A stretch of DNA of 64,000 nucleotides from Alphaproteobacteria bacterium. GTDB taxonomy: Bacteria; Pseudomonadota; Alphaproteobacteria; CALKHQ01. Below the pieces are notes generated by a model. It was not told the DNA's origin, made no database searches, and worked only from the letters and a program-made list of their open reading frames with translations. Positions 9,781 to 10,446 of this stretch are shown piece after piece. A program made the position numbers and the translations under genes. The stretch is from positions 544,001 through 608,000 of the forward strand of contig CBDDFZ010000002.1 in assembly GCA_965227515.1 (NCBI GenBank), given 5' to 3'. The stretch's first letter is position 1. Every line of letters starts with the position of its first letter.

Positions 9781-10446
9781 ATGGCGACAAATTACGGCTC
9801 GGGTAACTTCGATACATTGTTGTCCGATACTAGTGTCCGGCTGTTCGGCCGGGAGATGTTCGACATCAAGCTGGCCGGCAATCGCGACGAAGCCTACGAC
9901 TACAAGGGCGGCAACGACACCCCGCCGCCGGCCGTTCACTCCAGCAACAATTTCCTGCTCCATCAACTTAAGCGGGAAGATGCGCGCTTGGCGCGGATCT
10001 ACAGTTTCTCGTTCCAGAACCAGATCTTCGACCTGATGAAGCCGGCGCTGTTTGTCGTGCACGGCGAGGGCAACGTCCCCGACCCGCCGGAAATCCAGTT
10101 CAGCGCGACCGACGTGAGCACCCGCCGCGGCATCAAGCCGGCGATCACGGTCCGCTCCGGTGTGTCCGGTCAGGACGCACGGTTCACCGAAGACATCCGC
10201 ATGTGGCTCTATGACATCGCCGACTTCACCGTACGGCTGGACATGGAGGCGGGACCGTTCGAGCGCGTGCTGCTGGAGTTCGAGCTTGGCGGCCCGGGCA
10301 GCTTCGATGCCGGTGCGACCGCCGGTGGCGCTGCGGGCTGGACCGCTGGCGGTGCCGCGGGGTGGACCGCGGGCGGCGCGGCAGGGCCCAGGCGCGGCCC
10401 GCGGCAGCGCTATCGCCGGGGTCGCTGGCGCGGCGACGACGAGTAG
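9781..10446 (+). CDS. Hypothetical protein with C-terminal tandem TAGGAAG(W) repeats and Arg-rich tail; candidate YcaO/TfuA substrate or precursor
   Basis: GGGGGAG RBS, ATG start, GC-ending codon bias; tail DAGA-TAGGAAGW-TAGGAAGW-TAGGAAG-PRRGPRQRYRRGRWRGDDE. The CDS is confident; the function is inferred. Confidence 0.8.
   Translation: MATNYGSGNFDTLLSDTSVRLFGREMFDIKLAGNRDEAYDYKGGNDTPPPAVHSSNNFLLHQLKREDARLARIYSFSFQNQIFDLMKPALFVVHGEGNVPDPPEIQFSATDVSTRRGIKPAITVRSGVSGQDARFTEDIRMWLYDIADFTVRLDMEAGPFERVLLEFELGGPGSFDAGATAGGAAGWTAGGAAGWTAGGAAGPRRGPRQRYRRGRWRGDDE

Follow-up and report, generated by a model that had tools for sequence, protein, structure and literature searches.

YcaO proteins that work with a TfuA partner are known from two systems that come closest to the locus described here. 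The thiovarsolin cluster of Actinobacteria contains a YcaO-TfuA pair (VarY and VarT) and a repeating precursor, VarA, in which each C-terminal repeat is taken as a core; the precursor family extends from non-repeating members to members with five repeats, the pathway yields short thioamidated peptides that are linear, and the cluster is reported to be without a specific protease (PMC6511847). In methanogens, a YcaO-TfuA pair carries out glycine thioamidation of McrA (PMC5589413). The main text of a genome-mining survey gives more than 1000 TfuA-YcaO clusters in Proteobacteria and more than 500 in Rhizobium, without a characterized product, and mentions Nif11-like precursors in TfuA clusters (PMC8120280). 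Here we analyze a 64,000-nucleotide stretch from an Alphaproteobacteria bacterium (assembly GCA_965227515.1, contig CBDDFZ010000002.1, positions 544,001 to 608,000 of the forward strand), which we call the window and within which all positions are numbered. Downstream of genes for YcaO, TfuA, and a metallopeptidase, its plus-strand open reading frame P0001 (9781-10446; 221 aa) encodes a conserved N-terminal domain and a tail with three tandem units of the peptide TAGGAAG(W). The reading that we favor, by a modest measure, is that P0001 is a long-domain multi-core precursor whose tail would be thioamidated and cut into peptides of 5-8 residues, in a system tied to cyclic-nucleotide signaling.

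As a multi-core precursor of the type known among peptides that are made on ribosomes and modified after translation (RiPPs), P0001 would belong to a known kind, and it is in its architecture and partners that it differs. In the comparison with thiovarsolin, the likeness lies in the YcaO-TfuA pair together with a repeat-bearing C-terminal part and in a range from no repeats to several, which the P0001 family also displays. VarA itself is short and has a leader of the ordinary kind. The P0001 module, in contrast, has a folded domain of ~170 aa, a dedicated thermolysin-fold peptidase, a protein combining a nucleotide cyclase domain with tetratricopeptide (TPR) repeats, proteobacterial hosts, and, in Rhizobium, a form free of YcaO and TfuA. 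The McrA system provides the nearest curated models for both YcaO and TfuA, and what it modifies is a folded protein, not a small peptide; the window proteins, however, score below the equivalog cut-offs, the substrate in P0001 would be a disordered repeat tail, and the TfuA protein has an extra C-terminal domain of ~240 aa.

The original prediction for this DNA, made from the sequence of the window, had instead likened P0001 to multi-core cyanobactin and long-leader precursors. Cyanobactin precursors of the PatE type carry several cores, and NHLP and Nif11 precursors carry a long conserved leader ahead of a hypervariable core. P0001 resembles PatE in having several core copies on one precursor, but its units abut without recognition spacers and the linked protease is thermolysin-like, with no subtilisin-like PatA/PatG protease, and the analogy proved to be a loose one; the thiovarsolin precursor appears to be the closer precedent. 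P0001 shares the layout of NHLP and Nif11 precursors, its conserved leader-like domain being unusually long and the sequence behind it hypervariable. However, neither P0001 nor any of 44 relatives matches an NCBIfam model, NHLP and Nif11 included, and the conserved gene set of 80 homologous loci contains no transporter, C39 peptidase-transporters included.

The units of P0001 and the selection acting on them

The N-terminal domain of P0001 (9781-10308; residues 1 to about 176), a putative leader or recognition domain, precedes three tandem units at 10318-10386, which are putative repeated core peptides. Unit 1 (10318-10341) reads acc gcc ggt ggc gct gcg ggc tgg, unit 2 (10342-10365) acc gct ggc ggt gcc gcg ggg tgg, and unit 3 (10366-10386) acc gcg ggc ggc gcg gca ggg, exactly as had been quoted in the original prediction, and an Arg-rich C-terminal segment with the stop codon follows at 10387-10446. 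In translation, the tail is ...ELGGPGSFDAGA TAGGAAGW TAGGAAGW TAGGAAG PRRGPRQRYRRGRWRGDDE and then the stop. The earlier boundaries of this region, 10309 and 10446, correspond to a start three codons (Ala-Gly-Ala) ahead of unit 1 and to the last base of the stop codon. Tandem Repeats Finder reports the array at 10317-10387, with a period of 24, 2.9 copies, 78% matches, and a score of 84. The GC content by codon position is 0.60/0.41/0.84 in the N-terminal domain, indicating that the frame is coding, and 0.80/0.87/0.83 in the Gly/Ala-rich repeat region, and a Shine-Dalgarno-like run, GGGGGAG, lies a few bases 5' of the P0001 ATG.

An apparently globular domain of about 175 aa had been proposed ahead of the repeats, and the AlphaFold2 model of P0001 agrees with this: the best blocks of the N-terminal domain have pLDDT values of 89-94, and residues 174-218 fall below 50. 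The tail is thus predicted to be disordered from residue 174 and would, as such, be accessible. At 221 aa, with an N-terminal domain of ~170 aa that is predicted to be folded, P0001 exceeds the usual size of RiPP precursors, which are typically under about 120 aa and have a leader that is small or lacks structure. The model of the N-terminal domain found nothing significant in the PDB when searched with Foldseek (best E 0.49), its sequence profile found nothing significant among PDB sequences (best E 0.21), P0001 had no usable match in the ESM Atlas, and the tail matched no Pfam repeat family. In the tail, Arg-212 and Arg-213 are invariant across the 11 sequences of the first alignment. A GG-type leader cleavage site ('ELGG' ahead of the tail) was considered and set aside because there is no C39 transporter among the conserved neighbors.

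We compared adjacent units codon by codon. The 15 adjacent same-residue codon pairs of P0001 comprise 6 identical, 9 synonymous, and 0 non-synonymous pairs, compared with 7.1 identical pairs expected under independent draws from the local codon usage. The synonymous sites between the units are saturated. When the 51-residue tail was shuffled 20,000 times, none of the shuffled sequences reached the observed repeat score of 15 (maximum, 8), and the same number of shuffles of the 26-residue Gly/Ala-rich stretch also gave none (maximum, 10). Further, in two near relatives, whose contigs (runs X2 and X3) have a depth of 3-5, the tail is free of insertions and deletions, and all five differences between near relatives in the coding tail (10332, 10335, 10368, 10374, and 10443) are third-position and synonymous.

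The same comparison was extended to 40 distinct arrays, consisting of the window and 39 other loci, with identical arrays counted once. Here, 410 adjacent codon pairs were identical, 477 synonymous, and 34 non-synonymous, the last of these counts being biased low since the repeat finder selects on residue identity; codon usage predicts 337.6 identical pairs. The unbiased figure in this test is the excess of synonymous over identical pairs, and it is this figure that carries the argument for selection and excludes recent slippage and DNA-level homogenization. Across the 40 arrays, the synonymous sites are nearly saturated while the peptide is kept, and the peptide of each unit is the target of selection. 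The proposal that the repeats are not the outcome of recent slippage and that the peptide is under selection is thereby borne out, both by the window itself (9 of 15 codon pairs differ, with 0 residue changes) and by the 40-array totals.

The repeat-protein family and its partner genes

A word-indexed homolog search returned 10 relatives of P0001 and understated the family, a count that was corrected by a pattern scan and a profile search. The pattern scan of species-representative genomes found 102 relatives, from which 80 loci were kept; the profile search gave 651 family representatives (at the 50% identity level) at E ≤ 0.001, of which 504 remain at ≤ 1e-10 and 269 at ≤ 1e-30. In a sample of 401 genomes spread evenly over the phylum, the family is present in 4, the genome of the window included. 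The hosts of the 80 loci are mostly Alphaproteobacteria (Rhodospirillales, Roseibium, Rhizobium, Mesorhizobium, Paracoccus, Geminicoccaceae, and Kiloniellales), with some Gammaproteobacteria and single metagenome-assembled genomes of Acidobacteriota and Chloroflexota type.

Already in the first alignment, built from the word-search relatives, the N-terminal domain was conserved, and the tails differed from one another while being internally repeated. The conserved motifs of the N-terminal domain are LFGR, ARIYxFSYEG, FLVHGxG, WxYDKxDFSxRLD, and GxFExILL, and no Pfam or NCBIfam model matches this domain in any of 150 or 44 members, respectively. Strict tandem repeats are present in the tails of 100 of the 149 best representatives, with a period of 5 in 56 of these arrays, 7 in 30, 8 in 6, 6 in 4, 9 in 2, and 4 in 2, and several of the 49 remaining representatives have imperfect repeats. 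At the 80 loci, 39 of the 78 complete homologous genes contain repeat arrays, representing 39 distinct arrays. A conserved N-terminal domain with hypervariable, internally repeated C-terminal tails is what a leader/core arrangement had been expected to give, and, as far as architecture is concerned, this layout holds across 44, 80, and 150 sequences.

There are 61 distinct consensus units among 101 arrays, for example, SGAKV, SGARV, GMNAR, GANVR, GGGKV, SGAGV, SGASL, SGAHARV, SGQRARV, SSGMMAR, and SGSDLRT. Of the 101 arrays, 75 have units with exactly one bulky hydrophobic residue, 85 have Lys or Arg in the unit, and 97 have Gly. Because none of the 101 has Cys in its unit, thiazole or lanthionine chemistry is not expected. 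Gly, the residue thioamidated in McrA, is thus not universal in the units, and its role had been overstated earlier. The tails mostly end in RR, in acidic sequences of the R-G-x-x-D kind, or in RHR[LF]K-type sequences. Single-copy tails occur as well, and the closest relative of P0001, at locus L006, has one TAGGMTG unit where P0001 has three units, which indicates that the window array is a lineage-specific expansion. Pfam Pentapeptide is matched by 14 of 150 family members (best E 1.9e-10); the window tail, with its period of 8 and no Pfam match, falls outside the pentapeptide repeat class, as do the periods other than 5 of 44 of the 100 arrays. We also observed that GMSxx units form their longest arrays in the tails of Paracoccus. 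In the longer members of the family (P0046, P0088, P0123, P0163, and about 40 other representatives, 243-420 aa), an inserted, unannotated domain of 100-230 aa, without a Pfam match, separates the N-terminal ETLLS..LFGR strand from the remainder of the N-terminal domain.

The enzymes on which the original prediction relied, YcaO, TfuA, and a peptidase, are all encoded upstream of P0001 on the same strand: the order on the plus strand is YcaO, TfuA, the 241-aa protein P0014, the 454-aa peptidase, and P0001, which is the last gene of the same-strand run. The YcaO protein (4848-6089; 413 aa) is of the TfuA-partnered type (Pfam PF02624, E 5.7e-64). The TfuA protein (6086-7447; 453 aa; Pfam PF07812, E 1.8e-43) is a long one, with the TfuA domain at residues 7-215 followed by the C-terminal extension of ~240 aa, and its ATG overlaps the ycaO stop codon (ATGA, 6086-6089). 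The best NCBIfam match of YcaO is the YcaO-related McrA-glycine thioamidation protein, at 192 bits against a cut-off of 365, with the SagD cyclodehydratase model at 76.9 bits, and the best match of TfuA is the TfuA-related McrA-Gly thioamidation protein, at 171.8 bits against a cut-off of 235.2. By best score, both proteins are thus nearer to thioamide-forming than to azoline-forming models, below the cut-offs in each case. The TfuA extension has a faint match to TIGR04500, 'putative peptide maturation system protein' (E 0.0099); the tblastn alignments of TfuA to the other loci cover most of its length, and in the ESM Atlas the extension is found in low-score clusters of TfuA proteins of 439-468 aa only. 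YcaO and TfuA are both encoded at 51 of the 80 loci, and 11 further loci are too short for their presence to be judged. As a separate observation, one genome (G401, Rhizobium leguminosarum bv. trifolii, locus L021) contains five separate YcaO genes, none of which adjoins the repeat-protein operon.

Between P0014 and P0001 lies a gene (8357-9721, plus strand) for a zinc metallopeptidase with a thermolysin-like fold, 454 aa as called from a TTG codon; the true start may be further downstream. The sequence HEIGH at residues 204-208 corresponds to an HExxH motif that 70 of 72 homologs contain, with F-[HQ]-E-[SA] about 23 residues further on, and His-204, Glu-205, His-208, Glu-232, and Asp-236 are invariant in 45 sequences. 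The AlphaFold2 model of the peptidase (pLDDT 87.9, pTM 0.90), when searched against the PDB with Foldseek, gave 17 top matches that are all M4 enzymes (thermolysin, aureolysin, vibriolysin, elastase, and protealysin; probability 1.00, TMt 0.49-0.65), among them thermolysin 4tnl (E 1.2e-6, TMt 0.65). In its fold, and in taking its zinc ligands from HExxH and a Glu downstream of it, the peptidase thus agrees with thermolysin and the M4 family, but it has 10-14% sequence identity to the solved M4 enzymes among its significant matches, and none of 45 family members matches a Pfam M4 model, 4 of them having a weak M36 match. Since the fold and site are those of M4 but a Pfam M4 match is lacking, the peptidase is best called, on the model, a new gluzincin family with a thermolysin-like fold. 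The family profile also has a weak alignment (E 0.034) with angiotensin-converting enzyme, at the HExxH...HEAxxD zinc site of the latter. With no signal peptide or recognizable propeptide, which also sets it apart from M4 enzymes, the protein is apparently cytoplasmic. A peptidase homolog is present at 74 of the 80 loci, and at 67 of them its gene lies directly upstream of the repeat-protein gene on the same strand. At two Paracoccus loci (L079 and L083) and at L077, we observed YcaO, TfuA, and the repeat protein and no peptidase gene in the available sequence. Prediction of a complex between peptidase residues 25-454 and P0001 gave scores of 0.01 and 0.00, which are evidence neither way.

The most consistent additional partner, which the original prediction overlooked, is P0015 (10705-12495, minus strand; 596 aa), whose gene is convergent on the genes from YcaO to P0001. 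P0015 has an N-terminal class III adenylate/guanylate cyclase domain (Pfam Guanylate_cyc PF00211, residues 23-180, E 3.3e-7, 30.5 bits against a cut-off of 21.9), a middle domain, and C-terminal TPR repeats (Pfam TPR_2, E 4.8e-12, as well as other TPR models). A homolog of this cyclase-TPR protein (E < 1e-15) is found at 64 of the 80 loci, in every case within 4 kb of the repeat-protein gene. In Rhizobium and Mesorhizobium, its gene is the first in a three-gene operon, ahead of those for the peptidase and the repeat protein, and the Rhizobium copy has a weak match, below cut-off, to NCBIfam TIGR04510, 'putative peptide modification system cyclase' (E 9.3e-9). Further, 13 of the 80 loci encode a Crp-family regulator with cNMP_binding and HTH_Crp_2 domains (including L008:4977-5654, L042:5111-5827, and L081:10639-11334), a linkage that fits a cyclic-nucleotide output of the linked cyclase. 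Overall, the module consists of the thermolysin-fold peptidase, the repeat-tailed protein, and the cyclase-TPR protein, to which most lineages, including this genome, add YcaO and a long TfuA. The constant linkage of the cyclase-TPR gene suggests a role in signaling rather than as an antibiotic. A defense-system reading was also considered and dropped: in PADLOC, the cyclase domain had only weak Pycsar-cyclase-like matches (E 2.2e-8), and none of the five remaining proteins was matched.

Clustering of the open reading frames of the 80 loci also revealed a GNAT acetyltransferase gene next to the repeat-protein gene at 21 loci (including L035:860-1393, L046:10712-11245, and L079:6809-7273), mainly those with tails of the SGAGV, SGANL, SGASL, or SGSDLR type and those of Paracoccus. 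P0014 (7550-8275, plus strand) has no homolog at the 80 loci and is inserted in the operon only in this genome; none of its matches assigns it a function, Pfam, NCBIfam, and PADLOC give no match, and its GC content at third codon positions is 0.74, compared with 0.86 in the neighboring genes. Ten homologs were found, one of them from a Pseudomonas genome, of which five are named 'hypothetical protein' and five are nameless. Divergently oriented just upstream of YcaO, we observed a gene for a thioredoxin-fold, DsbC/DsbG-like protein (3965-4681, minus strand; weak NCBIfam matches, best E 5.5e-9), which is not among the conserved neighbors of the other loci.

Between the convergent repeat-protein and cyclase genes lies a long palindromic hairpin (10502-10612, ~110 nt), which is near-perfect, with exact inner arms, and has a minimum free energy of -69.7 kcal/mol (z -8.27, a stability that none of 200 shuffles attained). 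The hairpin belongs to a dispersed family with 31 matches in the same genome, both strands counted, at 69-82% identity over most copies; it looks like an element of the repetitive extragenic palindrome (REP) or miniature inverted-repeat transposable element (MITE) kind and may act as a bidirectional terminator. A terminator-like stem-loop with a T-rich tail (10673-10687, plus strand) comes from a consensus scan only, which found 7 in the region against 3.9 expected. Just 5' of the peptidase gene there is a sigma-70-like promoter match (8317-8345, plus strand; TTGACG-17-AATAAT, 10 of 12 matches), the only one in 4400-12800, where shuffles average 0.9, and therefore not significant alone. An Rfam scan of the window gave no match.

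Proposed function and alternatives

We propose that the N-terminal domain of ~170 aa would serve as a leader-like conserved handle for enzyme recognition and that the disordered tail, with its n tandem unit copies, would be the part acted on. Where YcaO and TfuA are present, YcaO would activate backbone amides with ATP and TfuA would help to deliver sulfur, giving a thioamide in each unit. The peptidase would cut once per unit, probably ahead of the single bulky hydrophobic residue (Trp in the window), to release several peptides of 5-8 residues, and in some lineages the GNAT enzyme might acetylate the new N-termini. Thermolysin-like enzymes prefer a hydrophobic P1' residue, and the composition of the units fits one cut per unit. 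The cyclase-TPR protein, with the Crp-type regulator at some loci, would couple the system to cAMP or cGMP, either because the TPR domain senses the peptide or the tail or because the cyclase controls the operon. These steps, and with them the core-peptide status of the units, are inferred.

Several points weigh against this proposal. The product, the modification, and the cleavage are all inferred. YcaO and TfuA are absent from 17 of the 80 loci, each of the 17 having at least 6 kb of upstream sequence and being of the Rhizobium/Mesorhizobium type, and these loci keep the peptidase, the repeat protein, and a cyclase; further, when the genomes behind five loci without a YcaO hit (four of the 17 and L038) were searched, YcaO was found elsewhere in 3 and not at all in 2. 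Thioamidation can therefore not be what defines the system, nor is the tie to YcaO and TfuA that the original prediction implied an obligatory one. The peptidase, in turn, is missing from L077, L079, and L083, which have room for its gene. The conserved set of the 80 loci contains no exporter or immunity gene, which is unusual for a secreted natural product, and the six window proteins have neither a transmembrane-like stretch (maximum 19-residue hydropathy, 1.69) nor a signal peptide discernible by reading their N-termini. A folded 'leader' of 170 aa is atypical for a RiPP, the window unit (Gly, Ala, Thr, and Trp, with no Arg and no Ser) is an outlier within the family, and the non-synonymous counts in the codon test carry the downward bias described above.

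One alternative is that the intact protein regulates the cyclase-TPR protein, with the units as multivalent docking sites for TPR domains, at least two of which could join cyclase monomers; the peptidase would then shorten the tail or take it off and so reset the signal, and thioamidation would tune binding or resistance to proteolysis. The cyclase-TPR gene is as constant a neighbor as YcaO and TfuA (64 of 80 loci, all within 4 kb, compared with 51), the three-gene Rhizobium operon holds the cyclase, the peptidase, and the repeat protein, 13 loci have Crp-type cyclic-nucleotide receptors, and the components all look soluble, with no conserved exporter. Many tails also end in acidic residues; TPR domains clamp acidic C-termini, and class III cyclases act as dimers. 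We nevertheless regard this alternative as improbable, since periods from 4 to 9, 61 kinds of unit in 101 arrays, and single-copy tails are a better fit for released lineage-specific peptides, a dedicated endopeptidase, encoded next to the repeat protein and with its active site intact, speaks for processing, and the binding of tails by TPR domains is putative. More unlikely still, in our judgment, is that the N-terminal domain is the functional part, as a chaperone, inhibitor, or activator of the peptidase in the manner of propeptides or of operon-encoded M4 inhibitors, and that the tail is structural or a spacer, with the period-5 tails perhaps forming a pentapeptide beta-helix. It is true that the N-terminal domain is the conserved part, that its gene lies directly downstream of the peptidase gene at 67 of 80 loci, and that operon-encoded protein inhibitors of protealysin-type M4 peptidases exist. 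Spacers, however, do not normally keep exact residues while synonymous sites saturate, and the domain model matches no solved structure, which leaves an emfourin- or propeptide-like inhibitor role as a minor candidate. As for the beta-helix, the Pentapeptide matches of 14 of 150 members lend it some support, but the periods of 4, 6, 7, 8, and 9 seen in 44 of 100 arrays cannot share that fold, and the window tail has a period of 8, is predicted to be disordered, and has no Pfam repeat match.

That the repeat is a neutral low-complexity or slippage product of a GC-rich genome is hardly credible. Gly/Ala-rich and GC-rich sequences, such as the repeat region here, often expand, but recent slippage gives identical DNA copies, and in P0001 9 of 15 codon pairs differ without any change in the peptide. 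Nor do composition-matched shuffles reach the repeat score in 20,000 trials. A further 39 independent arrays show this pattern, as do 100 of 149 representatives, and contigs obtained from other runs speak against an assembly artifact. Taken together, these considerations leave the multi-core precursor with a tail that would be modified and cleaved as the reading that we prefer.

A further step, which we offer with considerable doubt, is that the module could amount to a new kind of peptide-to-second-messenger signaling in Gram-negative bacteria. The folded protein would carry copies of a lineage-specific peptide, thioamidated in most lineages, for release by the cytoplasmic protease; the TPR domain of the class III cyclase would bind the peptides, or the uncut tail, as its ligands, and the peptide level would set the amount of cAMP or cGMP that is read by Crp-type regulators. 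In RRNPP signaling of Firmicutes, cytoplasmic TPR receptors bind peptides of 5-8 residues that are cut from pro-peptides. The likeness to this system is a functional analogy only and consists of a TPR protein that is genetically linked to a gene able to yield peptides of 5-8 residues; the differences are that the output here would come from a cyclase rather than from a helix-turn-helix domain or a phosphatase, that no secretion or import genes are linked, and that the host is Gram-negative.

Implications for YcaO-TfuA clusters and orphan cyclases

In the full-text literature, with subscription journals and supplements outside its scope, we found no description of the repeat-protein family or of this gene set. 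The words 'cyclase', 'repeat', and 'metalloprotease' are absent from the main text of the TfuA-YcaO survey cited above, the supplementary figures of which show Rhizobium cluster families and might depict these clusters (PMC8120280). In RefSeq, the peptidase and the repeat protein are both 'hypothetical protein' in one Rhizobium plasmid region; the repeat-protein gene is present on 51 plasmid records, and, of the 8 rows shown, 6 give 'hypothetical protein' under the match. Tools that seek short precursor peptides would overlook a protein of ~200 aa.

Two previously unannotated families, that of the repeat protein and that of the peptidase, are defined by the analysis and tied to orphan cyclase-TPR proteins. 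For one large group of proteobacterial YcaO-TfuA clusters, the P0001 family would supply a substrate that is concrete and open to testing. Its tails amount to a natural library, with at least 61 different repeated units whose sequence selection has held constant, so that the peptide of each lineage is predictable. Cyclases are unexplainedly abundant in rhizobia, and the linkage of the cyclase-TPR genes bears on that abundance. If the signaling reading were true, the units would be the first ligands for many orphan rhizobial cyclase-TPR proteins and would give a function to a large set of proteobacterial YcaO-TfuA clusters.

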